Source: Deltaproteobacteria bacterium (GTDB lineage: Bacteria; Desulfobacterota; JAENJC01). Taken from it: DNA of 64,000 bases. The notes beneath the pieces are model-generated. The model saw nothing but the letters and a program-made list of their open reading frames with translations, was not told the DNA's origin and did not search any database. The translations under genes were made by a program, and so were the position numbers. The stretch lies in NCBI GenBank assembly GCA_030646755.1, contig JAUSKU010000076.1:5162-69161 (forward strand), read 5' to 3'. Positions 14,490-64,000 of this stretch are shown in pieces (position 1 is the first letter of the stretch; every line of letters begins with the position of its first letter).

Positions 14490-14507
14490 CACATACCCCT
14501 TCATGCA

Positions 14508-16025: not shown

Positions 16026-17858
16026 GTGGTGTTGTATGCCGACACGATATCTCTGTTCTTCTATTACGACGACTTTGAGCGCCTCAGGGATGTAATAGCA
16101 GGCCAGGGTAATCCTTTTTTTATCTTTACACCTATTTATCGTCCCGGGGTTGCCTACTTCACCCCTATCTTTTATTTGTTTTTTGGCTCCTGTTATAAGC
16201 TCTTCGGTTTTAACCCGACCCCCTTTCACTTAATGAGTATAATCACCCATATCGTCAATTCAAGCCTTGTATGCTATTTTACCTTCCTTCTAACCAGGCA
16301 GAGATTTTTGGCAATGACAGCGGGAATCGTGTTTGCTATAAGTTTTAATATTGTTGATGCCGTTATCTGGCCATCGGCCTATGCAGACCCGATAGCCTTC
16401 CTGTTTTCTATCACGGCCCTCATAGGATTTTATAAATATTTAAAAACACCCAAATCGGCTTATTACGTCATAACCATTATATTTTTCATCCTTGCGCTTT
16501 CTGCAAAGATACAAGCCATGTTTCTACCGATAGGCTTGTTCGTGACAGAACTATATTACTTGACCACCGTGCAACAGAAGTTCAAAACCGCAGTGTTGAT
16601 CAAGTATCTGCCATTTATCATATTGAACCTCGTTTATCTGCTTCTTTTAAAGATCTTTGCCCCTCCCCTCGATGCAGGCTCAATAATTAACCTGAGCACG
16701 ATTTTATCGAACATTATTATAATCCCCCTGCTCTATATAATCCCGGAAGGGATATTGCCGCATTCTATCTTATATCCTCTTATAATTGATATTGGTCTGT
16801 TTGTTATACTACTCGTATTATTTTTCCGGCATTCAGCTAAGAATAACCTAATATGGTATGGGCCTGCCTTGCTGTTTATGGGGATATTGGCGCTGGTCCC
16901 TCTTAAGTGGAACTTCCCTTTGTATCCAGACCCAATGAATGAGAGCATCAGACACCGTCTTTACCTCGGTAACCTTGGATTTTCTATACTCGCAGGGGTG
17001 ATTATTCATGAGATATATCTTTTGACCTCGAATAGACTTACAAGGAGGGCGCTCTTTGTTTGCGGCCTGTTTGTCTTTCTTGCTCTAAATCTGAGTCAGT
17101 TATACAGGATAAAATCAGCATATATAAAAGTGACCTCGGATACCGAAAAGTCGCTTAATCAACTCAGAGAGTTGATTACTCAACTTCCGATTGAAAAAAG
17201 AAATATCTATATAGTGAATTTTCCACCTAACCAAGGGTTTGGAGTATCTATACAGAAACTCTTTCTGAATATAAAGGGGCTGAATCTTGGATTATGGCCT
17301 ACCGAGATACCTATAGGGTTGCCGGAAGATAGCCTTCAGATCTATTTGCATCTCAATGGCAACATATATGACCGCAATAGCAATGTTAGGAATGTTGCTT
17401 CAACTGCATGGGAGCATTTATACTCCGGCCAGTTTCTTCTGCTGACGGGGAAACAAGCAGATGCGGTGGAAGAGTTGCGAATGGCTTCAACAAATAGCTC
17501 ATGGGGTGATGGGAAAATTCATCATATTTTAGGTGTCACCTATCTTGGATTAGGGGAAAAAGAGCAGGCAATCGAAGAATTAAACAAGGCAATATTGAAT
17601 AATAGACGATATCCTGAAATTTATTCTTTACTTGGGACGTTGTATTTTGAAAAAGGAGATATTAACAGGGCTATTGAAAACCTTGGGCTTGCATTAAAAT
17701 CTAATCCTGCGGATTTCAAGATAATGGAGGATCTGGCTCTTATATATGAGGCTAAAGGAGAGATCCAGAAAGCAAGAATTTTATTTAAAAAGGCATTGTC
17801 ATTTGAGAGCAGACCAGAGTATAGGCGACAGATTGAGGAAAAGTTGCACAAGCACTGA
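16026..17858 (+). CDS. TMTC-like membrane protein: DUF1736-type multi-TM domain plus C-terminal TPR repeats (putative GT-C O-mannosyltransferase-like)
   Basis: The membrane domain aligns by eye with the 57474 and 59292 products (FHLMSIITHIVNSSLVCYFTFLL vs NWHPLTMISYALDYSIWGL...). The C-terminal 150 aa are TPR-like (GDGKIHHILGVTYLGLGEKEQAIEELNKAI...). GTG/alternative start. Confidence 0.55.
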   Translation: MVLYADTISLFFYYDDFERLRDVIAGQGNPFFIFTPIYRPGVAYFTPIFYLFFGSCYKLFGFNPTPFHLMSIITHIVNSSLVCYFTFLLTRQRFLAMTAGIVFAISFNIVDAVIWPSAYADPIAFLFSITALIGFYKYLKTPKSAYYVITIIFFILALSAKIQAMFLPIGLFVTELYYLTTVQQKFKTAVLIKYLPFIILNLVYLLLLKIFAPPLDAGSIINLSTILSNIIIIPLLYIIPEGILPHSILYPLIIDIGLFVILLVLFFRHSAKNNLIWYGPALLFMGILALVPLKWNFPLYPDPMNESIRHRLYLGNLGFSILAGVIIHEIYLLTSNRLTRRALFVCGLFVFLALNLSQLYRIKSAYIKVTSDTEKSLNQLRELITQLPIEKRNIYIVNFPPNQGFGVSIQKLFLNIKGLNLGLWPTEIPIGLPEDSLQIYLHLNGNIYDRNSNVRNVASTAWEHLYSGQFLLLTGKQADAVEELRMASTNSSWGDGKIHHILGVTYLGLGEKEQAIEELNKAILNNRRYPEIYSLLGTLYFEKGDINRAIENLGLALKSNPADFKIMEDLALIYEAKGEIQKARILFKKALSFESRPEYRRQIEEKLHKH

Positions 17859-32366: not shown

Positions 32367-32371
32367 TGTAG

Positions 32372-32398: not shown

Positions 32399-32407
32399 GT
32401 CAAATAT

Positions 32408-34443: not shown

Positions 34444-36363
34444 CTAATGCTTTGGATTCTCAACTTTACTTAGCCTGCTTAGCCTTAAAGGCGGTGTTGG
34501 CATATTTGGATGTTTTTGTAAATCCCCCCATTTAATGCTTATCAACTCTATTTGCCGGCCTTTATTCTCCTCCATATCTTTTCTGTTTAGACAAAAGGTG
34601 ATTATCTTTCCAAACTCAGATTTCTCATCTGATATGCGTTGCATTTTCTTAAGGCCTGCCTTTACTTCTATCTCTTCATCGGAATATATCTTTCTCATCC
34701 ACTCAGGGACGCCACCTACAGGTTCTACATGTATTGCAAGACACTCAGGGGAATCAAGGAAGTGAGTTGTTACTGGATTTACCATGCAACTATCAGTGAT
34801 ATCCCATCCCCGATTGTTGAAAGGTATTCCATACTTGGATTCCTGGTCCCTGCATTTATATTCTACAGGCAGAAGAGGATCTGTCGTCTGTCTCATTTGT
34901 GTAAGCTCTTTTTGGGCTACTTCAGCCGTTATGCAAATTGTCTTTCTAATTTCGCTGCGATGCCAGTGACGGGGGTTAATTTTCGCATGTGTTAAACTAA
35001 ACAGGCTCCAGCCCAGAAAGACAGCGCTCAAAATCAGGTTTAATACATAGGAGATATTTTTTGAAAATTTATACTGGACTAAACGGCCTATATAGAAATA
35101 TAGCGCTATAATCCCAATAACAATCGATGCTCCAAAATCCACAAAATATCGAGACGAGAACACTGGAAAGCGGGAATAAAAATAAAACAGCATTACGAAA
35201 CTACAGAATGACCATAATCCACTCATCTGAATGACTTTTTTGTCAAGAGAAGAGCTAAAACTGCTCTTGTTGATGAGGCCAACCGCCACAATAACCCATG
35301 ACAGGAATAAAAGAAAGGGGGTCAAAGAATCATATGGCCTAAAATAGAACTCCCGTATTCGTGGAAAACCCGACCCCGTTAACAGCCTTTCATCAAGGAA
35401 GTAAGGTATATCAAGATCGGTAAAAAATAAATCTGAAAACAATTCACTTCCTGCATTTAGAATTGGCATCCGTGCAAATGAGTCATCAAACTTCATGATA
35501 TAATCCTGAATGGGATACCCGCTCAGCAACAAGTTGTGGCCAAATTCAATGGGACTGTTAAAGCGCAAATAATTAGTTACTAACAAAAATATGATCCCTG
35601 CACTAAAAAGAAGAAGACCGAGCCAACGGAATTTTATCTGTCTATCTTTTGCAAGGTAAAATATCATTAATAAAGTTACCGCACCGTAAGAAATAGCGGT
35701 AGGTCGAAGGTTTGGTGAAAAACCTGCAAGAAAGCAAATTAAGAAGAAAAGGCGACTCTTGTGATTATTCAAAAAGAGCAGCAGCAATGCAAAGAGCATT
35801 AACGCCCAGAGGTAACTATATGCGATGACCTCTTCATAAGAGTCAAATCTGGCACGTACCATAGTAATAAAGGCAGGGTTAAGCAATCCAAAAACGAGAA
35901 TCGGAATATTTTTAACTCTTTTTTTAAATTGATCTCTTATACTCAGATCAGTATTTATAAGCGAATCGAGAGACTTCCAAAATATTGCTGCAACCAAAAA
36001 GTAAACTATTGCAAAGACTATCCTGTCAGGAAAACCGAATGAGCCAAAGGCCTTGCCAAGGATTTCAAATGGTAACCGTATAATAGGAACACCCAGGCCC
36101 CAAAGTTGGTGCATGCCGTTACCCCAAGCCCAGTCACCACTATGGCCATAAGGAACAGGGTTTAGCGCAAGTTCTCCTCGCAAAAAGGCGTCAGTCTGCA
36201 GTCGAAGCGATTGATTAAATGAATACCACTTTCCGATCTCAGGAATTAACCCGGTAACGTAAAGCATTATCCCAGTTATAATGATAGGCACAAGGATAGG
36301 GAATGGCCCCTTTAAACTTAGCAGAAATTTCTTCTTGCTTGCCTTACTTAATATTTCCGCCAT
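34444..36363 (-). CDS. large polytopic membrane protein, probable GT-C-type glycosyltransferase (shares a DWAWG loop motif with 37553..39487)
   Basis: Over 12 predicted TM segments. The loop YGHSGDWAWGNGMHQLWGLGVP resembles [14 protein letters not shown] of the adjacent ArnT-like gene. The ATG at 36363 overlaps a TAA (TAATG). Confidence 0.45.
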   Translation of the reverse strand: MAEILSKASKKKFLLSLKGPFPILVPIIITGIMLYVTGLIPEIGKWYSFNQSLRLQTDAFLRGELALNPVPYGHSGDWAWGNGMHQLWGLGVPIIRLPFEILGKAFGSFGFPDRIVFAIVYFLVAAIFWKSLDSLINTDLSIRDQFKKRVKNIPILVFGLLNPAFITMVRARFDSYEEVIAYSYLWALMLFALLLLFLNNHKSRLFFLICFLAGFSPNLRPTAISYGAVTLLMIFYLAKDRQIKFRWLGLLLFSAGIIFLLVTNYLRFNSPIEFGHNLLLSGYPIQDYIMKFDDSFARMPILNAGSELFSDLFFTDLDIPYFLDERLLTGSGFPRIREFYFRPYDSLTPFLLFLSWVIVAVGLINKSSFSSSLDKKVIQMSGLWSFCSFVMLFYFYSRFPVFSSRYFVDFGASIVIGIIALYFYIGRLVQYKFSKNISYVLNLILSAVFLGWSLFSLTHAKINPRHWHRSEIRKTICITAEVAQKELTQMRQTTDPLLPVEYKCRDQESKYGIPFNNRGWDITDSCMVNPVTTHFLDSPECLAIHVEPVGGVPEWMRKIYSDEEIEVKAGLKKMQRISDEKSEFGKIITFCLNRKDMEENKGRQIELISIKWGDLQKHPNMPTPPLRLSRLSKVENPKH

Positions 36364-37552: not shown

Positions 37553-39487
37553 TTATTTGTTTACGGCCTCATTAAGGTGTTCTCTATACTCTATAGAATC
37601 AGGTTTTATTTCCAGTGCCTGTTTAAACATTTTAATAGCTCTTAATTTATTGCCTTCCTTCAATAATACCATACCCAAGGTATCCATATATTCCGGGGTA
37701 TCGGGCTCTATTCCTAATGCTTTTTCCGCATATTTCCTTGCATCCTCTAATCTCTTTCCATCATTAAGATAAAGCCATGCCAGATTGTTAAGGGCCTCGG
37801 CCTGCGTGTCGTCCAGACGTAAGGCCTCCACATATGCCTTTTCCGCCCCCTTCCTATCATCATTTCCCAAAAGGATAGAGCCGATGACCGAATTAATCTT
37901 GGCCTTGGTCACCAGATCCAACTCGAAAGAAAGAAGCCCCCTATATTCCTCAAGGGCCTCGCCCTTAAAGCCCGCTTTTTCCAGGCTGCTGGCATACGAT
38001 AACCTTAGTAAGCCATCGAATGGAAAGGCTTTCAGAGCATTTCTATATTCTGATACAGCTTCCCGATACATACCATTCTTCATATATATATTTCCCAATA
38101 TCTTCTGAGAATGTTCAGGTGGATATCTAAGTATGTTTAGGTTGGCAACTACGCCCATTAGCATAATAGATAGGATGACAATAAATGTTTTTTTGTAGTC
38201 TCTTTCTTTAAAATATGCATATGACCTATCTATGGAGAATGCCGCATAAACACAGAGGAATGGAACTATAGGGAGCCGGAACCTGCCGATTATATAGAAT
38301 AAAACCAGGGTAAACATGAAGATCAAGACTATCCCATAACTCAGGAGGTGCCCCCTCCAGTTTCCGAGGGAAAGAAACAATCCTATAATGACAAAAGGTG
38401 AAATAATGCCGAATGAAATCAGAGGTAAACTCAGGACTGTGGAAGAGTGTTTAACAAAGTAATAATCCACATTATTCGGAACCTCATACCAGTTCCAAAA
38501 CAAGAGAAACTTTTTGAAGGTAAGTCTGACAAATGCTGCCGGTTTTTCATAAATAAACCTTTTGCCTAAAGAGAACCAATAATTTGATATTTCCGAAGAT
38601 TTAAGCTTTCTCCCTAATAACTTTTCCGGAACCCCTCTCGTTCTCTCCTCCTCCCGTTGTGGAATCAATTTGTACAGATTGCTTGTTAGCGCCCCGCCGT
38701 CTGATTCAATATTGTTTCCTTGGAAAAAATTTATTCCGCCATTGTAAGTGACGAGCACAAAATCTCTTTCAACAATGTAATTCCGTATCGTGGCTGGAGA
38801 TATTATAAGCACAGTTCCAAGAATGAAGGCGCATATTGATGCTAAATCCTTTTTTCCCTTCCTTTTCCAGTCAACCCCCCATAATATAAATAAAGGGATA
38901 AAAAGGAGGACATTCGGCTGACTAAGGACTGTTAGACCAAGAACAATGCCTGAGATTAACCAGAGGGTTGAAGAATCTTTTTTTTTCGCCTTAAGCACCA
39001 ACAGGATGGCAAGAGTCGTAGTAAATGCAGCCAGCGAATTCTTTAATAACTCTCCATCCATGAATATGGAATATGAATAAAAGGCCCCTATGAGTCCGGC
39101 TATTCTGCCTACCCTTTTACTGAAAAGCTCCTCACCTATCCAATATGTCACCATCCAGGTAACGGAGCCCAAGAACACCTGTAAAACCCCTACAACTAAG
39201 TAATTATGCCCAAAGATGTGATAAACTATGGCGAGAAAATAGGCATAGAAAGGGGAAGCCCAGTAGACCTTGTCGCCTCCTATCCAATTACCTTGAGCAA
39301 TCCCCCATGCCCAGTCGTCGTAATATTGAGAATCCAGTTGCGGATTTGTTAAAAAAGGATGGTCTCTGATCTCGATGATATAAATAAGGCGGATGGAAAG
39401 AGCTATTATAAATATGATTAATGGCCAGGGATCTTTTGAGGCGGGAACAGTCCCCTTATCAGAAGTCTCCATCGCTTTTTGCATCAA
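37553..39487 (-). CDS. ArnT/PMT-like GT-C membrane glycosyltransferase with C-terminal TPR repeats
   Basis: [17 protein letters not shown]...WASPFYAYF loop after the first TM helix. The C-terminal 230 aa are TPR ([22 protein letters not shown]...). Confidence 0.65.
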
Positions 39488-48924: not shown

Positions 48925-50435
48925 AAAAAATCCTATTTATAACCCCCCCATACCATGCAGGCGTAGTAGAAGTTGCCGGCCGCTGGGTCCCGCTGAACAT
49001 GGTCTATATCGCGGCTGCTGCAAGAGAAGCCGGCCTTGAGGCCCATATCTATGATGCCATGACCAAGGGCGTCGGACATGCCGAGATAGAGGCAAAGATA
49101 AGGGAGCTTCAGCCTGATTACGTTGCAACTACTGCCATAACCTGCACATCCCCCGACGCCTTAAAGGTAATTGAGACTGCCAAAAGGGTGAACCCGAAGA
49201 TAGTCACTATAATAGGCGGGATACACTCAACCTTTATGTATAATGAGATGTTTGATCTCTCCAAAGGGAATCTCGACTTTATAGTAAGAGGAGAGGGAGA
49301 CATAACTGTTAGAGAACTCCTTGCCACCATTGAAGCAGGCGGAGACCTTAACGATGTCCGCGGCATAGCCTACAAAAAAGGTGACAAGATAATAAAGACA
49401 CCGGGACGTCCCCTGATGCCTGCATCAGAGCTTGATAGCCTTCCCCAGGCGTGGGACCTGTTGGATTGGGAAGATTACGTTTATTTCATACTCCCGAAGT
49501 CAAGGCTCGGCGCGATAGCTACCTCAAGAGGTTGCGACAAGGATTGCACCTTCTGCTCCCAGAGGATTTTCTGGGAGAAGTCGTGGAGGGGAAGGAGTCC
49601 GGATTCTCTCATTAAAGAGATAGAGCTCCAGCACCTCAAATACGGTGTAAATGTAATCCTTCTGACTGACGACTATCCTACCCTCGACAGGAATAGGTGG
49701 GAAACCTTCCTGGACATGCTGATTGAAAAAAACTGGCCGATATACCTCCTTATGGAGACAACGGTTGGAGACATCATCAGGGACAGAGACATCTTAACAA
49801 AATATAGAAAGGCGGGGATTATACATATCTACGTCGGAACCGAATCTGTCAGCCAGGAGACCCTTGATTTAATAAAGAAGGATGTCAAGGTTGATGAGTC
49901 GAGGGAGGCGCTCCGGCTGCTGAACGAACACGGGATCATAACTGAAACCTCCATGATCCTCGGCTTCCCTTCGGAGACAAAAAAGTCTATTGAAGATACG
50001 CTGGTATTGGCAAAAGAATACAACCCAGACTTCTGCCATTTCCTTGCCATAGCGCCATGGCCTTATGCAGACATATATGCTGAACTGGAGAGGTATATTG
50101 TTGTCAAAGACTACAAACGCTATAACCTCATAGACCCTATAATAAAGCCGGAAAAGATGACCTTGGAAGAGATAGACCAGGCCATAGTTGACTGCTACAG
50201 GGATTTCTATATGGGGAAGATGCATGAAATAATGGGATTGAAGGACCAGTTCAAGAGAGAATACCTCCTTACCTCAATGAAGCTCATGATGAACTCTTCA
50301 TTCCTTATAAAGAAGCTTGGCCACATGGAAGGAATGCCAGAGGAAATGAGGCTCAGGATGTCATCCGGGGCCGCGGCCCATGGAGAGATGGTTGCTATGA
50401 ACAAAGACCTTTTGAAGGAGAGGATTAATAAATGA
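48921..50435 (+). CDS. B12-binding domain radical SAM enzyme (class B), fourth copy in the window
   Basis: MKKILFITPPYHAG... cobalamin-binding domain; SRGCDKDCTFC. ATGA overlap with the selenoprotein stop. Confidence 0.8.
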   Translation: MKKILFITPPYHAGVVEVAGRWVPLNMVYIAAAAREAGLEAHIYDAMTKGVGHAEIEAKIRELQPDYVATTAITCTSPDALKVIETAKRVNPKIVTIIGGIHSTFMYNEMFDLSKGNLDFIVRGEGDITVRELLATIEAGGDLNDVRGIAYKKGDKIIKTPGRPLMPASELDSLPQAWDLLDWEDYVYFILPKSRLGAIATSRGCDKDCTFCSQRIFWEKSWRGRSPDSLIKEIELQHLKYGVNVILLTDDYPTLDRNRWETFLDMLIEKNWPIYLLMETTVGDIIRDRDILTKYRKAGIIHIYVGTESVSQETLDLIKKDVKVDESREALRLLNEHGIITETSMILGFPSETKKSIEDTLVLAKEYNPDFCHFLAIAPWPYADIYAELERYIVVKDYKRYNLIDPIIKPEKMTLEEIDQAIVDCYRDFYMGKMHEIMGLKDQFKREYLLTSMKLMMNSSFLIKKLGHMEGMPEEMRLRMSSGAAAHGEMVAMNKDLLKERINK

Positions 50436-52363
50436 TCTCCCAAAGAACCCGTCTCATCCTCTTGACTTTATCCGCCATAATCCCCTTTTTTATATATCTG
50501 CTTACCGTTGCCCCGACCGTGGTCTTTTTTGACTCCGGGGAACTCATAACAAGCTCTTTCCTTGTCTCCCCGGCTCATCCTCCGGGATATCCGCTGTATG
50601 TAATGATGGGTAAATTTGCGACCTTTCTCCCCTTTGGCAGTGTAGCATATAAGGTCAACATCATGGCGGCCTTTTTCAGCTCCCTCGCTGTCATGACAGT
50701 CTTCCTGATAACCTCTCAAGTCATAAAGGACCTTCAGGTTTCCGAGACGCTGAGAAGGTATCAAGAGCTGATTTCGTTCGCAACGGCTATAACATTTGCC
50801 TTCTCTTACAGCCTGTGGAATCAGGCTATCATCGCAGAGGTTTACCCGCTCAATACCTTTATAACCGGACTTCTCATATATATTCTTTTATCGTGGAGGG
50901 ACAAAGCCCAGGAAATTAAGAAGATGAGAAGATGGGAAGATGGGAACCTCTCAACCTCTCAACCTCTCAATTTCTCAACTTCTCAACTTAATGATTCACG
51001 TCTTTTGTATTTAGTTTGCTTCCTGTTCGGGCTCGGCCTCGGCAATCACCATACCCTTCTTGTCATATTGCCTATTATCTTTCTGGTTGTGGCCGTGACA
51101 AACTGGCGCCTACTCTTTGATGCAAAGGCTTGGAGTATTTCCCTGGCATTCTTCATGCTCGGTCTTTCGGTATATATATTCCTTCCTTTGCGGGCCCTGC
51201 AAAACCCGGAACTCAACTGGGGAGACCCGGACACCATATCCAAATTAAAATGGGTCATATTCAGGGAAGGGTATCCAAAAGGAGAGCTATCCCGTCCCTG
51301 GGGTCTCTTCTGGCAGCAGGCGAAGACCTTTGACATAATCTATGAGTTTAGCGGCGCGGGCCTCCTTATGGGGTGCCTGGGAATAATAGCCTATATCATA
51401 AAAAAACCGATGGAGGTCCTCATAACAGTATCGGTAATCCTGATTTTAAGCCTCGGTATCATCATTTACGGGAACCCCATCCCCGAGAATGTCTTTCTAA
51501 TAGAATCCTTTCACACACCCTCCTATATGATATTTTCCGTCTGGATAGGGGCAGGGATGTTTTTCCTCCTCAGTCTCATTTATAGATTTGCCGGAAAAGT
51601 TTTTGAATCAAAGGTGATGACAGCGGTATTGGCTGTATTGATCATACTCCTTCCAACCTCGCTCTGTGCATACTTTTATCCATGGAACGACAGAAGTGAT
51701 GATTTCATTGCTTATGATTACGCACAGAACGAGCTTGCCACCATGCCGTCGAACTCCGTACTCTTCACATGGGGTGACAGCGGCGCTTTCCCTCTCTGGT
51801 ACGCCCAGATGGTGGAGAGGTTCCAGCCTAGCGTTTTGCTGATACATACCCCGCACCTGTCTACAAAGTGGTATATAGACGAATTACCGGATTCCGTAAG
51901 GCTGGGACAGCTTCAATGGATACAGAAAGATGACCTTTATGCTGAGGCAGTCTTCATGATAATGCTTAGGGAAAATTACGGAAACTACCCGCTCTATATT
52001 GACTATTCCACCAGATATTCTGTGCCGGTAGAGGGTTATGCATCAATCCCCCAGGGCCTTGTCTATGAACTTAGCACAGATTCCATGAAAATGACTGATA
52101 TCAATATGTGGGGTAAGTATGCCATGAGGGGGATATACAAAAAAGACCCATACAGGGATCTTGATACAGGGAAGGCGGTATCCATATACGCCAACACACT
52201 CTTTGATGTAGGGAACCATCTCCTCAGGCTTGGATACTCGGATGAGGCCTATACCCAGTTTGGAGAGGCGGCAAAGATAAGCCCGGGGTTGAAACAGCAG
52301 GTAAGAGAGATAATGTTCGGCCAGCCTGAAAAGCCTGAGGGAAAGCCTGAGGGGCATCCATGA
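50432..52363 (+). CDS. DUF2723 (TMEM260-like) polytopic membrane protein, putative GT-C glycosyltransferase
   Basis: VVFFDSGELITSSFLVSPAHPPGYPLY matches the DUF2723 N-terminal signature. Confidence 0.7.
   Translation: MISQRTRLILLTLSAIIPFFIYLLTVAPTVVFFDSGELITSSFLVSPAHPPGYPLYVMMGKFATFLPFGSVAYKVNIMAAFFSSLAVMTVFLITSQVIKDLQVSETLRRYQELISFATAITFAFSYSLWNQAIIAEVYPLNTFITGLLIYILLSWRDKAQEIKKMRRWEDGNLSTSQPLNFSTSQLNDSRLLYLVCFLFGLGLGNHHTLLVILPIIFLVVAVTNWRLLFDAKAWSISLAFFMLGLSVYIFLPLRALQNPELNWGDPDTISKLKWVIFREGYPKGELSRPWGLFWQQAKTFDIIYEFSGAGLLMGCLGIIAYIIKKPMEVLITVSVILILSLGIIIYGNPIPENVFLIESFHTPSYMIFSVWIGAGMFFLLSLIYRFAGKVFESKVMTAVLAVLIILLPTSLCAYFYPWNDRSDDFIAYDYAQNELATMPSNSVLFTWGDSGAFPLWYAQMVERFQPSVLLIHTPHLSTKWYIDELPDSVRLGQLQWIQKDDLYAEAVFMIMLRENYGNYPLYIDYSTRYSVPVEGYASIPQGLVYELSTDSMKMTDINMWGKYAMRGIYKKDPYRDLDTGKAVSIYANTLFDVGNHLLRLGYSDEAYTQFGEAAKISPGLKQQVREIMFGQPEKPEGKPEGHP
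50919..50998. repeat. eight consecutive 8-bp units (aagatgRg x3, aacctctc x3, aatttctc, aacttctc) inside the DUF2723 CDS
   Basis: Direct reading of 50919..50998; it encodes KMRRWEDGNLSTSQPLNFSTSQLN. Confidence 0.5.
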
Positions 52364-55014: not shown

Positions 55015-57429
55015 ATGGCCTTACCAGCTCAAAAAAAGTTTTTGCTTCCCCTTTTTTTCCTTTCCGGCTTTTCAGCCCTTATCTATGAGGTTATATGGGC
55101 CAGGATGCTGACCCTTGTGTTCGGCTCCACGGTTGAGGCGATAAGCGCCGTCGTCACAGCCTTTATGGCAGGACTTGCTGTTGGAAGCTACTTCATGGGA
55201 AAGTGGGCGGATAGACGAAACAACACCTTGCTGATATATTCCATTACAGAGTTCGGCATCGGAATAGTCAGCCTCTTCTTTTACTTTATTATTATATACC
55301 TTCCTGATATCCATTCCACATTTCACGATATAGTAGATATTAAAACTTCCTTTGTAGTATTCAATAACAGCGGATATATCATGGATTTTCTCCTGGTCTT
55401 TATACCCGCAACCCTGATGGGTGCTACATTCCCATTGATGGTAAAATCTTATGTCTCATCCCGAAATTATGTGGGCGAGGGAATGAGCGTAATTTATGCC
55501 ATAAATACACTTGGGGCAGTATTTGGCGCTTTCTCTGCAGGATTTCTCCTGATCCCCTATTTTGGCGTAATGAGGACTGTTTTTATCGCAGTAACGATCA
55601 ATATCTTGCTGGCCATGGCCGCTTATCTGATAAAAAGGGTTCTCCCACTCAGACCAGCCATTTCAGTAATAACGCCTATACCACCCGCATTCCAGGATAA
55701 CGATACGTCGCGACCTCTGGCCCCGATTTCCCATACAGAACCGATTGCAGCATTCTCAGTACTGCTTGTTATGACCCTTTCAGGGTTTGCATCTCTCGCC
55801 TATCAGATCGCATGGACCAGGGTTCTGACCATGGTAATAGGGAACTCTGTTTATGCATTCGCTACAATACTAACAACCTTCCTGGCGGGTATAGCCATAG
55901 GGAGCTTTGCCTTTATCAGGCATATAGACAGGGTAAAAGACAAGATTCTTTTATTGGGAATCCTGCAGCTTTCCCTGTGGCTTTCAGTTGTCACCTTCCT
56001 TCCAAGGGTTGATTCTCTCCCATCCATCTTTCTGGCACTTTTCAGGCACCTACCTGCAAACTTCACGGGAATTATATTTATTGAATTCATTGTTACATTC
56101 ACCGTCGTCCTTCTCCCCACGATACTTATGGGCGCATCCTTCCCGGTTGCAGCAAGGATATACATAAACACAGTCGATTCAATAGGAGAAGGGTTGGGAA
56201 GGCTTTATGCCGTTAACACCGTAGGAGCTATCTTCGGCTCCTTTCTTACAGGCTTTATATTCATACCCGCTCTTGGTGTACAAAAGACCATATTCTTCAT
56301 ATCTGCCCTGAACCTCTTTTCCGGCATCATCCTTATAGGTCAGGCCGGAAGTTTACGGAAAACCTGGAGGATTTCTGTTCCCGCATTTTCGGTTATATTT
56401 TTCCTGTATTTCGGCGCTACAAACCATGACTGGAACAAGAACCTTTTGAACAGAGGGGTTTATGTCTACGCCGAATGGCTGAAAAAGCTCCCTGAGATGG
56501 GGGCAGACCTGGATAAGTTTTCAAGCCAGTTTGAACTACTTTATTATGAAGAAGGAAGGGGTGGAACTGTTGCTGTTTCTAAAACGCGAGACAGGGTGCT
56601 GTCCCTTCAAATAAACGGCAAGACCGATGCAAGCACAAGCGATGCAGATATGCAAACCCAAATCATGATAGCAGCCTTACCCCTTCTTACGCATCCTGAT
56701 CCTGAAGAGATTGCCATAGTAGGCTTGGGAAGCGGAGTTACTCTTGGAGCCGCTGAAAGGTTCCCTCTAAAAAAGATCGAATGCATAGAAATTATCCCTG
56801 AGGTTGTCAAGGCTAACAGGTATTTTACCAACTTCAATCACAATGCATTAGATGACCCCAGGGTATCCCTTATAATAGGAGATGCACGTCGTCATTTAAC
56901 TGTTTCCAGGAAGAAGTATGATATTATTATAGATGAGCCTTCAAATCCGTGGATAGCCGGGTCATCCAACCTTTTTACTTTAGAGTTTTTCCGGCTTGTA
57001 AAAGACAGGCTTAATGAAAACGGCATATTATGTCAATGGTTTAATCTTTATACAATCGATACATCCGAACTGAAGATCCTTCTTAACACGTTCAGAACCG
57101 TTTTCCCTCATGTGACTGTCTGGGCATTTTCAGAGGAAGATTTGATTATTTTGGGTTCCAACAATCCCTTACAGATTGACGAAGATCGTTTAGACTATGC
57201 CTTCTCTGAATTTGAAATAAAAAAAGAGCTTTTACGGGCCGGGATAGTAGATAAGGATCGAATCAAATCAGCATATTTGATCGGGAATAACGAACTTGAA
57301 AGATTTTGCAAGGGAGCCGGATTAAACACAGACAATAGGCCCGTCATAGAATTCGAGGCCCCAAAGAGGCTTTACCGTCCCACTACGGAAAAGAATATCT
57401 CGGCCATCCTTTCATCTGCATCATTTTAA
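55015..57429 (+). CDS. fused MFS-like membrane domain / spermidine synthase-like (polyamine aminopropyltransferase fold) protein
   Basis: Two 7-TM halves starting with FFLSGFSALIYEVIWARML are followed by a SpeE-like C-terminal domain (IVGLGSGVT...DIIIDEPSNPW). Confidence 0.75.
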   Translation: MALPAQKKFLLPLFFLSGFSALIYEVIWARMLTLVFGSTVEAISAVVTAFMAGLAVGSYFMGKWADRRNNTLLIYSITEFGIGIVSLFFYFIIIYLPDIHSTFHDIVDIKTSFVVFNNSGYIMDFLLVFIPATLMGATFPLMVKSYVSSRNYVGEGMSVIYAINTLGAVFGAFSAGFLLIPYFGVMRTVFIAVTINILLAMAAYLIKRVLPLRPAISVITPIPPAFQDNDTSRPLAPISHTEPIAAFSVLLVMTLSGFASLAYQIAWTRVLTMVIGNSVYAFATILTTFLAGIAIGSFAFIRHIDRVKDKILLLGILQLSLWLSVVTFLPRVDSLPSIFLALFRHLPANFTGIIFIEFIVTFTVVLLPTILMGASFPVAARIYINTVDSIGEGLGRLYAVNTVGAIFGSFLTGFIFIPALGVQKTIFFISALNLFSGIILIGQAGSLRKTWRISVPAFSVIFFLYFGATNHDWNKNLLNRGVYVYAEWLKKLPEMGADLDKFSSQFELLYYEEGRGGTVAVSKTRDRVLSLQINGKTDASTSDADMQTQIMIAALPLLTHPDPEEIAIVGLGSGVTLGAAERFPLKKIECIEIIPEVVKANRYFTNFNHNALDDPRVSLIIGDARRHLTVSRKKYDIIIDEPSNPWIAGSSNLFTLEFFRLVKDRLNENGILCQWFNLYTIDTSELKILLNTFRTVFPHVTVWAFSEEDLIILGSNNPLQIDEDRLDYAFSEFEIKKELLRAGIVDKDRIKSAYLIGNNELERFCKGAGLNTDNRPVIEFEAPKRLYRPTTEKNISAILSSASF

Positions 57430-57473
57430 ATATTATCAATGTCTAACCCCATGACGTTATATAAAGACGAGTA

Positions 57474-59225
57474 ATGAGATTCCTGTCTAATAAAAACCTG
57501 ACGTTACCTTTTCTGATCGCCCTTGTCACGTTTATAACCTATCTCCCGGCCCTGAACAACGATTTTGTGAACTGGGACGACCCGACCTATGTCTATGAAA
57601 ACCCGCATCTCCAATTATTAAATTTAGATTTCATAGAATGGGCCTTTTCATCAGTATATTTCAGCAACTGGCACCCTCTTACGATGATTTCCTATGCATT
57701 GGATTATTCCATCTGGGGGCTGAACCCATTTGGATACCACCTGACCAATATATTTTTTCATGCTTGCAATACCTTCCTGGTTTTCGTCCTGGTTGTGCGT
57801 TTGATAGAATGTCAACCCAACTCCCCCATCCCCCTTTTTAATAAAGAGGGGGTCAGGGGGCGTTATCCTTCATCCCTCGTTGCCGCCTCTGTAACCGCCC
57901 TTCTATTCGGCATCCACCCTATACATGTAGAGTCGGTTGCATGGGTGTCCGAAAGAAAGGATGTCTTATGCGCCTTTTTCTTTTTACTGGCCCTTCTCGT
58001 ATATCTCAGATATGTCTCTGCGAAAACCAGAACATCACTCCTCTATAGTCTGTGTCTCCTTCTCTTCGCAATGGCGCTGCTGAGCAAGCCTATGGCCGTG
58101 TCATTCCCTGTTGTCCTGCTGATACTGGACTTCTACCCCTTAAAGAGATTCCGGGCCGGAGATGAAAAGATTAAGAGAATCCTGGCGGAAAAACTGCCAT
58201 TCTTCCTGTTCAGCCTTTTGTCGTCATTGATGACCGTATGGGCGCAATATTTGGGAGGATCATTAAAACCGCTTGAAATCTATCCCCTTACTACTCGTTT
58301 CTTTGTAGCCATGTGGGCGATACTTTTCTATCTGTCAAAGATGCTCATCCCTCTTGACCTTGCCCCTTTTTACCCCTACCCTTCCCAAATCACCGCAACA
58401 CATATAGGGGCCTTTATCCTCGTATCCGGGCTGATCGCCTACTGCATTAAGAATAGACTTTTAACTGCCGTCTGGTCTTATTATATAATCACCCTTATTC
58501 CTGTCATCGGGATCGTGCAGGTCGCCGGATTCGCAGCAGCCGACCGTTATACATACCTGCCTAGCATAGGGCCGTTTATGCTTGCCGGCATTGCCATAAG
58601 CCTGCTCATTGAAGGCTATTCAAGATACAAAAAGGCAGTTGTTGCCGTGCTTGCAGGCCTGACTGTCCTTACTGTAAGTATGACAATAAAACAGATAGAG
58701 GTATGGAGGGACTCTATTACCCTCTGGTCTCATGAGATAAAGATATATCCTGATTTCTACAGCTCCTATTATAGCCGTGGGAATGCCTATATAAAATTGA
58801 ATAGATATGATGAGGTAATAAGCGATTATACCAAGGCCATTGAACTTAACCCTAAATACCTGGATGCCTACAATAACCGGGGGAACATCTATTTCGATTT
58901 GGGCAATTATCAGGCAGCATTATCGGATTATAATAAGGCGCTTGAACTCAACCCTCTGGACAGCCAGGTCTACACCAATCGAGGCAACGCATATCTCGGG
59001 TTGGGGGACTATGCTCAGGCAATAAAGAACCATGATAGGGCCATTGAGCTCAACCCAAACGACGCAACGGCTTACAACAATCGCGGTGCCGCCTATTTCA
59101 GATCAGGAAATTACGCCCATGCGATAAGGGACTTCAGCAGGGCCGTCGAGCTTGATCCGCAGTTCACTGATGCATATAACAATTTACAAGCGGCCGACCG
59201 CTCCTTTAAAGCCATCGATAGATAA
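57474..59225 (+). CDS. TMTC-like protein: DUF1736 membrane domain plus C-terminal TPR repeats (putative GT-C O-mannosyltransferase-like)
   Basis: FVNWDDPTYVYENPHL...NWHPLTMISYALDYSIWGLNPFGYHLTN and seven C-terminal TPR units (YNNRGNIYFDLGNYQAAL...). Confidence 0.65.
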   Translation: MRFLSNKNLTLPFLIALVTFITYLPALNNDFVNWDDPTYVYENPHLQLLNLDFIEWAFSSVYFSNWHPLTMISYALDYSIWGLNPFGYHLTNIFFHACNTFLVFVLVVRLIECQPNSPIPLFNKEGVRGRYPSSLVAASVTALLFGIHPIHVESVAWVSERKDVLCAFFFLLALLVYLRYVSAKTRTSLLYSLCLLLFAMALLSKPMAVSFPVVLLILDFYPLKRFRAGDEKIKRILAEKLPFFLFSLLSSLMTVWAQYLGGSLKPLEIYPLTTRFFVAMWAILFYLSKMLIPLDLAPFYPYPSQITATHIGAFILVSGLIAYCIKNRLLTAVWSYYIITLIPVIGIVQVAGFAAADRYTYLPSIGPFMLAGIAISLLIEGYSRYKKAVVAVLAGLTVLTVSMTIKQIEVWRDSITLWSHEIKIYPDFYSSYYSRGNAYIKLNRYDEVISDYTKAIELNPKYLDAYNNRGNIYFDLGNYQAALSDYNKALELNPLDSQVYTNRGNAYLGLGDYAQAIKNHDRAIELNPNDATAYNNRGAAYFRSGNYAHAIRDFSRAVELDPQFTDAYNNLQAADRSFKAIDR

Positions 59226-59291
59226 GCCTTCCAGAGGTATTGTCAACACATTTAGGTTGACTGAAAGGGCGCGTTCACGTATCATAACAAG

Positions 59292-61298
59292 GTGAAGAAA
59301 AGAAAGAAGCAGGAAAACCTTACTACGCAAAAAACCTCTATTTCACAAGCACATAGCGATCCTCAACAACATAGCGCTTTTATTTTTTCCGAGCATCTCC
59401 TGCCATTTATTACGGCTTTTTCTGTTGCCCTTATCACCTTCATAATCTACCTCCCCACCCTTAATAACGGCTTTGTAAACTGGGACGACCCCACATATAT
59501 CTACGAAAACCCGCACATACGCTTATTAAACCTCTCTTTTATAAAATGGGCCTTCTCATCTGTATACTTCAGCAACTGGCACCCGTTAACGGTGATCTCC
59601 TATGCATTGGATTATGCCGTATGGGGGCTAAACCCTTTCGGATACCACCTGACCAACATTGTTTTTCATGCGGCAAATACGTTTCTGGTTTTTGTCCTGG
59701 CTGTACGTTTAACCGAATGTGGAATAACTCAAAATTTAAAATTCAAAACTCAAAACTTTCAGTTGATCTCCGCCTCTGCAACCGCCCTTCTCTTTGGCAT
59801 ACACCCTGTCCATGTGGAGTCTGTTGCGTGGGTGTCTGAAAGAAAGGATGTCTTATGCGCCTTTTTCTTCTTATTAAGCCTTATTTCATACGTCAAATAT
59901 GTATCTGTAAAGACTACTAAGCCTTATGTCCTGAGTCTTGTCTTTTTCATACTGGCGCTGATGAGCAAACCGATGGCTGTCTCATTGCCTGCGGTACTGC
60001 TGATACTGGACTTTTATCCGTTAAAGAGATTCCAGGCCGGGAATGAAAAGATAAAAAGAGTCATGGTGGAAAAACTGCCTTTCTTTCTGTTCACCCTTTT
60101 GTCGTCATTGATAACCATATGGGCTCAATACTCTGAAGGAGCGTTAAAGCCGCTTGAAATCTATCCCCTTACTACCCGATTTTTTGTAGCCATATGGGCG
60201 ATACTTTTCTATCTGTCAAAAATGCTCCTTCCTCTCGACTTTGCCCCGTTTTACCCATACCCTTCCCAAATCACCATAATGCACATAGGGGCCTTTATCC
60301 TAGTGTCAGGACTGACAGCCTACTGCATTAAGAATAGACTCTTATCCGCCGTCTGGTCTTATTATATAATCACACTTATCCCTGTTATCGGAATAATTCA
60401 GGTTGGCAACTCTGCGGCGGCCGACCGTTATACATACCTGCCCTCCATAGGACTGTTCGTGCTTGTGGGCATAGCTATAGCCCGATTCATTGAAATGCAT
60501 TCGAAGTATAGAACGGCGGTAGCGGTCGTGCTTGCAGGCCTTGCTATTTTTACTGTAAGCATGACCATTAAACAGATAGGTGTGTGGAGGGACTCTATTA
60601 CCCTCTGGTCTCATGAAATTGCAATATTTCCCGAGACTATGGCAGCTCCTTATGATTACCGTGGGACCGCTTATAGCAAATTAGGCAATTATGAGAAGGC
60701 CATTGCGGATTTTAATATGGCAATAAAGTTAAACCCTGCTTATCCTGAGGCTTATAACAACAGGGGAGATGTTTATTTTAAATTGGGAGATTATCAGCAA
60801 GCAATCAAAAATTACAGTACCGCAATTGAGTTAGCTCCCGGATATGCCGAAGCTCATAATAACCGTGGACGTATCTATGCTATGCAAGGGAGACTTGATG
60901 AGGGGATGCATGAATTTCAGACTGCATTAAAATTGAAACCTATTTCAGAAGCCCACAGCAATCTGGGAAGCATCTATGCAAGTAAAGGAAGACTAACAGA
61001 AGCGATCGCTGAATTTCAGAAAGCGTTGAGTCTCGAGCCGGATGAACATATCTATTACTACGGCTTAGGTAATGTCTATCATACTCTGGAGCAGCTGGAT
61101 GAGGCCAAATATTATTATGAGGAAGCTTTACGTCTGAACGGGAATTTTGTAGAAGCCCATTACAGTTTAGGAGTAGTTTATATTAAAATGGGATTTAAAG
61201 AAAAAGGAATAATGGAATTAGAATCAGCGTTAAAGCTAAAACCTGGATTTGAACCTGCCCGCCAACTACTGGAATCCCTCATTACTTCCCGTCATTGA
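59292..61298 (+). CDS. TMTC-like protein, tandem paralog of 57474..59225 (GTG start)
   Basis: The N-terminal 450 aa are ~75% identical to the upstream paralog; longer TPR tail. Confidence 0.65.
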   Translation: MKKRKKQENLTTQKTSISQAHSDPQQHSAFIFSEHLLPFITAFSVALITFIIYLPTLNNGFVNWDDPTYIYENPHIRLLNLSFIKWAFSSVYFSNWHPLTVISYALDYAVWGLNPFGYHLTNIVFHAANTFLVFVLAVRLTECGITQNLKFKTQNFQLISASATALLFGIHPVHVESVAWVSERKDVLCAFFFLLSLISYVKYVSVKTTKPYVLSLVFFILALMSKPMAVSLPAVLLILDFYPLKRFQAGNEKIKRVMVEKLPFFLFTLLSSLITIWAQYSEGALKPLEIYPLTTRFFVAIWAILFYLSKMLLPLDFAPFYPYPSQITIMHIGAFILVSGLTAYCIKNRLLSAVWSYYIITLIPVIGIIQVGNSAAADRYTYLPSIGLFVLVGIAIARFIEMHSKYRTAVAVVLAGLAIFTVSMTIKQIGVWRDSITLWSHEIAIFPETMAAPYDYRGTAYSKLGNYEKAIADFNMAIKLNPAYPEAYNNRGDVYFKLGDYQQAIKNYSTAIELAPGYAEAHNNRGRIYAMQGRLDEGMHEFQTALKLKPISEAHSNLGSIYASKGRLTEAIAEFQKALSLEPDEHIYYYGLGNVYHTLEQLDEAKYYYEEALRLNGNFVEAHYSLGVVYIKMGFKEKGIMELESALKLKPGFEPARQLLESLITSRH

Positions 61299-61609
61299 GG
61301 CGGCCTGAATTTGTGATAATGCTAATATATTTCTATCGTTAGTGAACAAATCCCCAGTCTTTAGGCTGGGGATTCAGGCATCAGAAATCAAATGGCCTCC
61401 GCTTCGCTCCGGGCGGCCATTTATCCCCAGGCTTGAAAACCAGGGGTTTTCTGGCCGATTTTATAAAGATTGGGGCTTCAGGAGTATCGTTCTTTGAATA
61501 ATTAGAGGATGGGTTGTTGTAAAAACCCATCCTCTAACATGGCGCAGTACTTCGTTGAAATGCTTCTTTACATAGTAAGGTAAAAAATAATCAATAGACT
61601 CCTTAGTAG

Positions 61610-62887
61610 CTATCGTCCTTTTTGAGTATATTTCATTGTTAAGTAATCATAACCCCCGATATCGGAGTATGTCGTACCTGTTACATATACTGCTCCCGCA
61701 GCATCTACAGCGATATCTGATGACTCATCAGCGGAGCCTCCGTCAAATGTCCTCACCCACTTTTCATTTCCGCCTGTATCATATTTAATTGTAACAACAT
61801 TTGTCGGCATGTTAACAGGTTGGATTCTCCCGGTAATATAGATACCACTATCTACATCCATAGCCATAGCGGAAGGCTTTTCACCATTATTCCCGCTGTC
61901 ATATCTTGTTGTCCATTGCAAGCTACCGTTGACGTCATACTTGACAGTAACAATATTTGCTACCCGGTTACTGTTGTCACTTGAACCAGTCACGTAGACA
62001 TTCCCTGTAGCATCGACCATAATGGCTTCAGCCAAGTCCTCGTAACCATAGCCAGCATCGTAATTCCTAATCCACTGCTCATTCCCATTTGTATCATACT
62101 TTATTGTAGTGTAATCGTTCCATCCCCCTGCATTTTCGCTTCGCCCCGCTATATAAATATTGCCTGAAGAATCAACTAAGAGTGCGGCAGGCCTATCCTC
62201 AAAACCACCGTCATATCGCCTGGCCCATAATTCATTTCCATTAGGGTCATACTTTACAGTCGCAAAGTCAAAGCCGCCTGAAGAAGAGTCGCTATATCCT
62301 GTCACACATATATTCCCAGACGTATCTAAAGCAAGACCGAACGGGTAATCGCTCCATAACCCGCCATACCACTTAACCCACACCTCATTCCCATTCGCAT
62401 CATATTTTATTGTAGCATAATCATTTCCGCCGGAAGGGCCAATGCTACTTTTTGCTACATATATATTTCCAGAAAAATCAACGGCGATAGCATTACCGCC
62501 ATCCTTTACCCATAATTCATTTCCATTTGTATCATACTTTAGAGTGGCAGTAGTCCCTGTCACATAAACATTGCCGAAGGAATCAACAACCAAAGCAGAA
62601 GGCACATCCGGCATCGCCCAATACCCATTATCATACCGCTTGACCCACAGTTGATTCCCATTAGTATCATATTTTATTGTCGCATAGTCGGAATTTTCTC
62701 CCCAACTTGTTCCCGTCACATATACGTTACCCCACGGATCAAGTGAAACGGCAATCACCTTATCATTACCATGGACAGCTCCATCATATGTTCTTATCCA
62801 TTTTTCTATAGCAACTTGCGCCCCAGCATAATGCGGTAACAATAAAAACAGGAACGACATCACTGCAACGGATATTTTCCACCTCAT
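61610..62887 (-). CDS. secreted beta-propeller (SBBP-type) repeat protein
   Basis: Signal peptide MRWKISVAVMSFLFLLLPHYAGA; more than 8 repeats of YDTNGN(E/Q)LWV(K/R)RYDG. Confidence 0.65.
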   Translation of the reverse strand: MRWKISVAVMSFLFLLLPHYAGAQVAIEKWIRTYDGAVHGNDKVIAVSLDPWGNVYVTGTSWGENSDYATIKYDTNGNQLWVKRYDNGYWAMPDVPSALVVDSFGNVYVTGTTATLKYDTNGNELWVKDGGNAIAVDFSGNIYVAKSSIGPSGGNDYATIKYDANGNEVWVKWYGGLWSDYPFGLALDTSGNICVTGYSDSSSGGFDFATVKYDPNGNELWARRYDGGFEDRPAALLVDSSGNIYIAGRSENAGGWNDYTTIKYDTNGNEQWIRNYDAGYGYEDLAEAIMVDATGNVYVTGSSDNSNRVANIVTVKYDVNGSLQWTTRYDSGNNGEKPSAMAMDVDSGIYITGRIQPVNMPTNVVTIKYDTGGNEKWVRTFDGGSADESSDIAVDAAGAVYVTGTTYSDIGGYDYLTMKYTQKGR

Positions 62888-62985
62888 AATAACTCCTCCT
62901 TATCAATATAGTATTTTGATCTTTATATTCCACATTCATATCTCAAAAGCAGAGACCCTTTTTTCACCTCCTTTCTTGCCGATTT

Positions 62986-63035
62986 GACACAAAAAAAACG
63001 CCTCCCCAGATGATTTCCAGGAAAGGCGTTTCACT
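62986..63035 (-). terminator. rho-independent terminator for the minus-strand TMTC-like gene
   Basis: On the minus strand: aaacgcctttcctggaaatcatctggggaggcgtttttttt. Confidence 0.5.
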
Positions 63036-63061
63036 AAAAGCGTTGTTAAGGCTGGTTTTAT

Positions 63062-63085
63062 TGAATTGAATTGAATTGAATTGAA
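63062..63085. repeat. (GAATT)4-5 pentanucleotide microsatellite in the 3' region of the minus-strand TMTC-like gene
   Basis: ttattgaattgaattgaattgaattgc. Confidence 0.5.
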
Positions 63086-63230
63086 TTGCAGGAGACGTGC
63101 CATTGGAACCTCCTTCTTATCAACAGGGATTTTTGAACTAATTTGTCTTCCTATATATCTCGTTAAATCTTTAATGTCAATAAATATTTTGGGACGGTTT
63201 TACAGAGGAATCGGGCAGGTTTAACGGGGT

Positions 63231-64000
63231 TCAATTCTCAATTAAAGCAAGTTCCTGCCGGGCCGGATAAAAATCCGGCTTCAACTTCAGTGCCATTTCA
63301 AATGCCTCCCTCGCATTGTCCTTCACGCCCTTTGCGAGATATGCCTTCCCCAGATTAAAATAGACGTAGTGGTCCGGCTTAAGCTTTATAGCAGCCTGAT
63401 ACTCAAGTATGGCGTCATCAAGGCGCCCCATTTTATAATAGGTGTTTGCAAGATAGTTATAATATGAGGGGTCGTTTGGATTCAGCTCTATCGCTGCATT
63501 ATACTCCCGCACCGCCTCATCAAAGCACATCTGCTTAAGATATATGCTTCCCAGGCTACTGTGGTAGTATGGATTATTTGGGCTTAGCCTGATAGCCGCC
63601 TGATGCTGCCTTATGGCATCTTCAAGACGTCCGAGCTTGCCGTAAGTGACTCCAAGATTATAATTAGCATTAGTATGGAGCGGGTTCAACTCAACTGCCT
63701 TTTCAAGGTCGCTAACAGCCTTGGCATACTCTCCTCTCATCAGATAGGCCTGTCCGCGGTTGTTATACCCCAGTACCGTTTCTTGATTGAGTTTAATTTG
63801 ATGGGACCAGAGGGTTATAGAGTCCTGCCATATGCCTATTTGTTTTATTGTCTTGACGATCAAAATCCCTGATAGAAGGACCAAGATGCCTATGATGCCG
63901 GCCAGATAATGTTTTTTTGAAAGACCCTCAAAGACGCGTCCTATACCCAGCCCGGCAAGAAGGAATAGACTCAGGCTCGGTAGATACGTGTATCGGTCAG
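63231..64000 (-). CDS. TMTC-like protein, third paralog; the N-terminus lies beyond the window end
   Basis: TIKQIGIWQDSITLWSHQIK plus TPR repeats are colinear with the 57474 and 59292 products. The frame stays open upstream of the first in-window ATG (63884) to nt 64000. Confidence 0.6.
   Translation of the reverse strand, partial: DRYTYLPSLSLFLLAGLGIGRVFEGLSKKHYLAGIIGILVLLSGILIVKTIKQIGIWQDSITLWSHQIKLNQETVLGYNNRGQAYLMRGEYAKAVSDLEKAVELNPLHTNANYNLGVTYGKLGRLEDAIRQHQAAIRLSPNNPYYHSSLGSIYLKQMCFDEAVREYNAAIELNPNDPSYYNYLANTYYKMGRLDDAILEYQAAIKLKPDHYVYFNLGKAYLAKGVKDNAREAFEMALKLKPDFYPARQELALIEN

Follow-up and report, generated by a model that had tools for sequence, protein, structure and literature searches.

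Which proteins are encoded in the crowded right-hand part of this stretch of DNA, and what might they do? The stretch (hereafter the window) comprises 64,000 nt of contig JAUSKU010000076.1 from a metagenome-assembled genome (MAG) of a Deltaproteobacteria bacterium. It carries genes for large membrane proteins with tetratricopeptide repeat (TPR) tails, and an earlier note on this DNA had likened them to the animal TMTC proteins. The current work, by sequence comparison and structural modeling, shows that three of them have the GT-C glycosyltransferase fold and are bacterial homologs of TMTC, the protein O-mannosyltransferases of animals. The open reading frames (ORFs) were all found again in place, and their coordinates are kept here.

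57474..59225, plus strand: TMTC-like GT-C glycosyltransferase, paralog 1 (583 aa; predicted catalytic module with 11 transmembrane segments in residues 1-420, about 4 TPRs in residues 421-583)
59292..61298, plus strand: TMTC-like GT-C glycosyltransferase, paralog 2 (668 aa; starts with GTG; about 6 repeats in its longer TPR tail)
63231..>64000, minus strand: TMTC-like paralog 3, C-terminal 255 residues (open fragment; the gene exceeds the window end)

The two tandem paralogs and the third on the opposite strand, as first described, are confirmed by the ORFs. Paralogs 1 and 2 are separated by 66 nt and share 64% identity over their full length. The fragment of paralog 3 contains the end of external loop 5 including DRYTY, the last two transmembrane helices, a linker, and TPR. 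All 255 of its residues are found as the C-terminus of a database protein of 608 aa (P0012) from the same 83,430-bp MAG contig, registered under "Deltaproteobacteria bacterium", and in this complete form every motif discussed below is present. With the conserved ITLWSH linker taken as the boundary, pairwise identities among the three paralogs are 76, 57, and 59% in the membrane domain but only 38, 31, and 39% in the TPR tail; for paralog 2 against paralog 1 the values are 76% in the N-domain and 38% in the tail. TPR_1 matches paralogs 1 and 2 at 3e-47 and 1e-48, respectively.

The fold of the membrane domain was predicted with AF2 (AlphaFold2) for paralog 1, using 60 homologs. The model consists of 11 helices and has a pLDDT of 91.7 and a pTM of 0.92. 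In a Foldseek comparison with the PDB, ranks 1-16 were all GT-C proteins (probability 0.97-1.00), among them STT3, ArnT, AglB, PglB, Pmt1, AftD, AftA, and ALG9. A closer kinship was found with TMTC. The N-domains of TMTC1-4 from human and fly (8 sequences) were taken from the supplementary alignment of PMC7801869 and compared by hhalign with the 60-sequence profile of the bacterial family, which gave a probability of 99.84% and an E-value of 2.7e-30 over 384 columns (15-421 against 6-430). BLASTP to human TMTC3 gave 4e-16, with 30% identity across 214 residues. Thus, the proposal that the membrane domains are related to GT-C enzymes holds. The same profile had a probability of 0.3%, that is, no detectable relation, against another TPR-tailed GT-C protein of the window (37553..39487, a PMT_2-type protein); the relationship is therefore specific to the TMTC lineage.

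The architecture originally proposed was DUF1736 plus TPR, to be checked by profile search. The GT-C domain, the TMTC homology, and the TPR tail all stand; the DUF1736 model, PF08409, does not match. On the isolated N-domains, no Pfam model matched even at E<=10, with PF08409, PMT, PMT_2, and TMEM260 all among those absent, and NCBIfam gave no match on the isolated membrane domains, so that Pfam and NCBIfam recognize only the TPRs of these proteins. As a positive control, PF08409 from the same library matches the N-domains of human TMTC3 and TMTC1 at 1e-31. PF08409 is absent from all of the 120 nearest homologs. A phmmer search of PDB sequences with the N-domain found nothing, and a profile search of the PDB with the full family alignment was swamped by TPR proteins and is uninformative on the membrane domain. 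No TMTC structure was present among the sequence or fold search matches in the PDB.

Conserved motifs agree with this kinship in most places and depart from it in others. The TMTC motif set has been described as M1 (DD), M2 (SHKSYRP), M3 (RxD), M4 (KE[TQ]xxT), and M7 (ERxxY) (PMC7801869). In paralog 1, FVNWDD is located at residue 31, HPIHVES at 148, SERKD at 159, SKP at 204, and DRYTY at 357, and the DD, HPxHxE, RxD, K, and DRxxY motifs are intact in all three paralogs. Among the 60 homologs (about 50% identity), D35, D36, W66, P68, H96, H148, P149, E153, E160, R161, and K162 are invariant, as are K205, Y286, P293, P298, Y300, D357, and Y361; at least 90% of them also keep R358 and D163. Motifs M1 (DD), M3 (R161-K-D163), and M7 (D357-R-x-x-Y361) are therefore present in the bacterial family, together with the HPxHxE box, which is invariant in the TMTCs (supplementary alignment of PMC7801869). 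M2 is partial (SNWHP against SHKSYRP, with the Pro invariant), and in M4 Lys205 is kept while the Glu is replaced by Pro or Ala. In loop 4, the DNP and DW motifs of TMTC are replaced by Y-x6-P-x4-P-x-Y-P-x-P, and the TMTC DW position falls within the LAPFYPYP stretch of the bacterial protein in the hhalign alignment. This replacement accounts for the absent DUF1736 match.

The motifs are distributed over five loops: loop 1 bears DD, loop 2 both HPxHxE and RxD, loop 3 the Lys, loop 4 the Y-x6-P...P-x-Y-P segment, and loop 5 DRxxY. With the 11 transmembrane segments taken from the AF2 helices, the frequency of K+R per residue is 0.29 for loops predicted to be cytoplasmic and 0.03 for the motif-bearing periplasmic ones, and the DD-bearing loop, predicted to be periplasmic, contains no K or R. 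The odd number of transmembrane segments, an N-in orientation, and the positive-inside count place the active-site loops and the TPR tail on the periplasmic side. Thus, in this model the catalytic loops and the TPR solenoid would both be periplasmic, as in TMTC and in TfpW, a pilin glycosyltransferase of Pseudomonas aeruginosa.

It is proposed, with moderate confidence, that the three paralogs are TMTC-lineage GT-C glycosyltransferases of the inner membrane and carry out periplasmic, polyprenyl-phosphate-sugar-dependent transfer, probably onto proteins chosen by their TPR tails. The steps of such a reaction were modeled on solved GT-C enzymes and on the TMTC models. A GT2 enzyme would make a polyprenyl-phosphate-linked monosaccharide on the cytoplasmic face, and the product would then be flipped. 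The donor phosphate may be held by the Lys of loop 3 and the Arg of loop 5, the first Asp of the DD motif may activate the acceptor hydroxyl, and the TPR tail may recruit or select the acceptor. The window contains one candidate for the synthase of the donor:

4562..5359, plus strand: small GT2, candidate polyprenyl-phosphate-sugar synthase (PF00535 4e-20; 50 kb from the paralogs)

The best NCBIfam matches of this GT2, at 1e-14 to 1e-17, are to AglJ, PpgS, and dolichyl-phosphate hexose transferase, and none comes near its cut-off. The conserved catalytic modules (57-76%) combined with diverged TPR tails (31-39%) make it most likely that the paralogs use the same donor on different acceptors, in the manner of TMTC1-4. 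Periplasmic or secreted proteins would be the most probable acceptors, if TMTC and Pseudomonas TfpW are taken as guides.

Several observations weigh against this proposal. TPR domains are found on polysaccharide-export proteins too. The family has no bacterial member with a known activity, donor, or acceptor, and the DUF1736 segment of loop 4 is unrecognizable. The modeled metal ligands of TMTC are replaced, with the Glu of KE changed to Pro or Ala and the Asp of DW lying in a Pro/Tyr-rich stretch, so that the catalytic details may differ from those of TMTC. The commonest neighbors across genomes are of glycan type (GT2, PMT_2, and methyltransferases) and fit glycan or lipid acceptors equally well. 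Moreover, the functions of the TMTC motifs themselves were assigned from homology models rather than solved structures (PMC7801869).

The family is very large. A phmmer search with the N-domain against 1.84 billion representatives at 50% identity returned 82,041 matches at E<=1e-3, 49,630 at E<=1e-10, and 19,030 at E<=1e-30. Two exact motif patterns matched at least 600 stretches in species-representative genomes, distributed over Nitrospirota, Nitrospinota, Desulfobacterota, Planctomycetota, Verrucomicrobiota, Acidobacteriota, Gemmatimonadota, Ignavibacteria, and others. Those motif-matched loci with at least 12 kb of sequence (61 species-representative loci) were used for the analysis of gene neighborhoods. 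Two to six TMTC-like copies within about 21 kb were found in 25 of the 61, and larger arrays, with 5-6 TMTC-like genes in about 20 kb, were observed in Nitrospirota, Planctomycetota, Verrucomicrobiota, and Smithellaceae (L003 6775-19982; L034, L047, L055, L056). The density of GT-C genes in the window had at first been regarded as unusual, a view that these numbers do not support: clustering of copies is usual for the TMTC-like family, and the window locus is an ordinary example. All listed homologs are annotated as "tetratricopeptide repeat protein" or similar only. The presence of GT105, the CAZy family of TMTC, in prokaryotes has been mentioned "to a limited degree" (bioRxiv 10.1101/2023.08.23.554508), and a literature search found no characterized bacterial GT105 or TMTC-like enzyme.

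Glycan or lipid modification is the main alternative. The paralogs would then act on lipopolysaccharide core or O-antigen, exopolysaccharide, or lipid A, either like ArnT or like the GT-C part of three-component extracytoplasmic glycosylation systems, which are known (PMC11127046), and the TPR tail would dock on assembly or export machinery. A Pfam census of the 140 nearest non-TPR neighbors in the species genomes, which also counts in favor of the main proposal, is consistent with this idea, the top families being GT2 (9), PMT_2 (6), and S-adenosylmethionine (SAM) methyltransferases (5), together with PEP-CTERM (5) and TMEM260-like proteins (2). ArnT is among the best structural matches, and the window has its own glycan-type cluster (533-20418) with GT2, GT9 heptosyltransferase-like, RmlD-like, and carbamoyltransferase genes, in which the diverged TMTC-like copy at 16026 is also located. 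The intact copies at 57-64 kb, however, are not embedded in a glycan-synthesis operon. The closest characterized sequence relatives, TMTC1-4, act on proteins, as does TfpW, the closest characterized bacterial protein of the same architecture (likened by its published description), and strongly diverged TPR tails on conserved modules fit many protein acceptors better than one glycan. Glycan or lipid modification is thus possible at a rather low probability, and periplasmic transfer onto proteins remains the preferred reading.

The diverged copy and the other GT-C genes of the window are as follows.

16026..17858, plus strand: diverged TMTC-like protein with TPR tail (610 aa; BLASTP 6e-10; hhalign 99.6%, E 1e-23)
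6330..7955, plus strand: PMT_2-type GT-C protein (PF13231 3e-8; in tandem with 7981..9615)
7981..9615, plus strand: PMT_2-type GT-C protein (PF13231 2e-13; in tandem with 6330..7955)
37553..39487, minus strand: PMT_2-type GT-C protein with TPR tail (PF13231 7e-14; not detectably TMTC-related)
50432..52363, plus strand: TMEM260-like (DUF2723) GT-C protein (PF11028 1.1e-42)
34444..36363, minus strand: orphan membrane protein with predicted GT-C fold and C-terminal beta-rich domain (639 aa; fold match only)

The copy at 16026 had been described as a more diverged protein of TMTC architecture. Its homology and its TPR tail are upheld; the first transmembrane segment and most motifs are not there. 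The gene starts 64 nt past the preceding gene, which leaves no space for this segment. Only DD is retained (FYYDD, residues 12-16; DD at 15-16), and HPxHxE, RxD, and DRxxY are lost. By sequence, it is a real but degenerate relative of the family, and it may be either inactive or of an unusual N-out topology. Four radical SAM genes (11680, 13065, 14508, 17911) surround this copy, and a B12-binding domain was detected in 13065 and 14508.

A further B12-binding radical SAM gene (48921-50435, plus strand) overlaps the TMEM260-like gene (50432-52363) by 4 nt, and the latter in turn overlaps aroE (52360-53226) by 4 nt. In a related MAG (locus L001 5089-7482), a B12-radical SAM gene and CcsA/ResB genes adjoin TMTC-like genes. 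A thyX-MTHFR-DUF5981 block (window 30805-33133) is syntenic with a contig of MAG GCA_040961615.1 (L002 19940-21974), where the flanks carry GT2 and GT4 genes, two TMEM260+TPR genes, two genes for NHL propellers, and one TMTC-like gene; relatives differ in the glycosyltransferases encoded beside this housekeeping block.

The protein of 34444..36363 has no Pfam or NCBIfam match, and only 40 homologs were found in 5.8e9 proteins. Several of these homologs are encoded in tandem on short contigs, and two distant ones carry a fused GT2 domain. The AF2 model of the window protein has a pLDDT of 86.9, and Foldseek ranks 1-23 are all GT-C, the best being EmbB (1e-5) and EmbA. The gene adjoins a GDSL-like gene (36509-37549) and the PMT_2+TPR gene. 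This protein, whose assignment comes from the model, represents an orphan GT-C family that is arguably more novel than the TMTC-like genes. The earlier note had counted four ArnT/PMT-like genes besides a DUF2723 gene; three genes match PMT_2 and the DUF2723 gene is clear, and the orphan protein is GT-C by fold only. Its total of nine GT-C genes in the window is confirmed: three PMT_2, one TMEM260-like, four TMTC-like, and the orphan.

Two neighboring genes had been considered as possible partners of the paralogs, namely a secreted beta-propeller protein and a fused membrane protein. They are listed here with two terminator-like elements.

55015..57429, plus strand: fusion of an MFS-like membrane domain with a spermidine-synthase fold (804 aa; NF037959 3.6e-48; Spermine_synth PF01564 1.6e-21)
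61610..62887, minus strand: SBBP beta-propeller repeat protein, predicted to be secreted (425 aa; PF06739, seven repeats, 2.5e-32; predicted Sec-type signal peptide)
61440..61454, plus strand: terminator-like hairpin 3' of paralog 2 (consensus scan only)
63001..63025, minus strand: terminator-like hairpin, a stem of 10 bp and then T8, located after the stop codon of paralog 3 and before the start codon of the SBBP gene (consensus scan only)

Both proteins are as had been described, the propeller lying between the paralogs and the fusion upstream of them. The N-terminus of the SBBP protein has a hydrophobic, signal-like stretch ending in AGA|Q without a lipobox Cys, and its gene is convergent with paralog 2. 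The fused gene ends 44 nt before paralog 1 on the same strand, and a literature search found no characterized MFS/spermidine synthase fusion. The promoter and terminator scan is of consensus level, its counts barely exceeding those of shuffles (33 promoter-like elements against 22.1 expected, and 12 terminator-like against 8.4). Scans of the whole window for Rfam families (gathering score) and for tRNA and tmRNA genes found none.

Neither gene accompanies the family. None of the 61 species loci had an SBBP homolog at a distance of 10 kb or less from a TMTC-like gene, and NHL, NosD, and MFS/spermidine-synthase genes occurred in 1 of 61 each. Conversely, 50 metagenome loci (448 kb) encoding SBBP relatives contained no TMTC-like, other GT-C, or MFS/spermidine-synthase gene, and no propeller family recurs among the 140 nearest non-TPR neighbors. 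The SBBP protein as a conserved partner is rejected on the two sets of loci and the census, and the MFS/spermidine synthase on its single occurrence; comparison lends no support to the supposed links of the two genes with the enzymes. As the gene content reads, the SBBP adjacency is best taken as a coincidence that may at most be lineage-specific, and neither gene is demonstrably part of the glycosyltransferase system.

A wider idea about acceptors arose from the related MAG (L001, L002, L005), where TMTC-like genes occur near NHL/YncE-like propellers, NosD beta-helix proteins, TMEM260+TPR, and GT2 genes. The bacterial family could be a general periplasmic protein O-glycosylation system in which each paralog serves a class of beta-rich secreted proteins (SBBP, NHL/YncE propellers, NosD beta-helices, PEP-CTERM), and it could be the prokaryotic counterpart, possibly the ancestor, of the metazoan TMTC-cadherin pathway. 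If this were true, the window would contain both the enzymes and, next to them, a candidate for their substrate. Such a system is doubtful, and the beta-rich substrate idea fails to generalize over the 61 loci. The PEP-CTERM proteins among the neighbors (loci L011-L086) are a possible acceptor class.

The narrower claim, that the paralogs O-mannosylate the adjacent SBBP propeller as a bacterial counterpart of TMTC acting on the beta-rich domains of cadherins, is quite improbable. The predicted Sec signal would bring the SBBP protein to the periplasm, where the catalytic loops and the TPR tail are predicted to lie, the related MAG offers the propeller and beta-helix neighbors just mentioned, and tfpW adjoins its substrate gene pilA (bioRxiv 10.1101/2020.04.19.049825). 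These points are opposed by the absence of SBBP from the 61 loci and of GT-C genes from the 50 SBBP loci, by the lack of recurrent propeller neighbors, and by the terminator-like hairpin that parts paralog 3 from the SBBP gene, itself convergent with paralog 2; moreover, nothing points to mannose. The notion that the paralogs are non-catalytic TPR membrane scaffolds or chaperones keeping a GT-C-like fold, for which the TPR-only annotation, the motif-poor copy at 16026, and the non-enzymatic GT-C-like fold of PIG-U (PMC7801869) could be cited, is highly improbable, since acidic, basic, and His residues at the catalytic and phosphate positions of GT-C enzymes are invariant in the 60 homologs and the three paralogs, which would be unexpected without enzymatic constraint.

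The significance of these results belongs to the family as a whole and not to the window locus. TMTC1-4 were recognized as cadherin O-mannosyltransferases only in 2017. Proteins that public entries name only "tetratricopeptide repeat protein" are GT-C proteins of the TMTC lineage, with DD, HPxHxE, RxD, K, and DRxxY intact, and the family could reveal a widespread, unrecognized periplasmic glycosylation activity. A tractable bacterial member could yield the first structure and direct enzymology for the TMTC lineage.

Among known systems, metazoan TMTC1-4 (CAZy GT105), the O-mannosyltransferases of the endoplasmic reticulum for cadherins and protocadherins, are the closest, with a GT-C module of 11 transmembrane segments homologous end to end with the window proteins. 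Both groups share DD, [SN]xxxxP, HPxHxE, RxD, the Lys of loop 3, and [DE]RxxY, as well as a C-terminal TPR tail on the active-site side of the membrane (predicted for the window proteins) and multiple paralogs with diverged tails. The window proteins differ in loop 4, where DUF1736 with DNP and DW gives way to Y-x6-P...P-x-Y-P-x-P unmatched by PF08409, in loop 3, where KE(T/Q) becomes KP or KA, and in their shorter TPR tails of about 4-6 repeats. In a bacterial host, the donor would be an undecaprenyl-type polyprenyl phosphate sugar instead of dolichyl-phosphate mannose.

TfpW of Pseudomonas aeruginosa is a pilin O-arabinofuranosyltransferase that uses decaprenyl-phosphate-D-arabinofuranose as donor, and tfpW consistently adjoins pilA. 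By its published description it resembles the window proteins as an inner-membrane GT-C enzyme of 11 transmembrane segments with a periplasmic DDx motif, a Pro-rich motif in loop 4, a periplasmic C-terminal TPR, and a protein acceptor (bioRxiv 10.1101/2020.04.19.049825). Unlike tfpW with pilA, the TMTC-like family has no conserved accompanying substrate gene, and no pilin gene was seen beside the TMTC-like genes of the window.

ArnT, the GT83 transferase of 4-amino-4-deoxy-L-arabinose (L-Ara4N) from undecaprenyl phosphate to lipid A, has in common with the window proteins the GT-C_A fold, a polyprenyl-phosphate monosaccharide donor, and a periplasmic active site, and its structure 5f15 was among the best Foldseek matches (5e-4), with 13-15% identity in the structural alignment. 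It differs in having a lipid acceptor and no TPR tail, and the PMT_2 Pfam model does not match the TMTC-like proteins of the window. PMT/POMT (GT39) and TMEM260 (DUF2723) resemble them in the GT-C fold and in protein O-glycosylation from a polyprenyl-phosphate sugar. They are separate families, with no Pfam match on the TMTC-like proteins. The window also encodes homologs of both types (PMT_2 and TMEM260-like), and in other genomes such homologs again appear next to TMTC-like genes.

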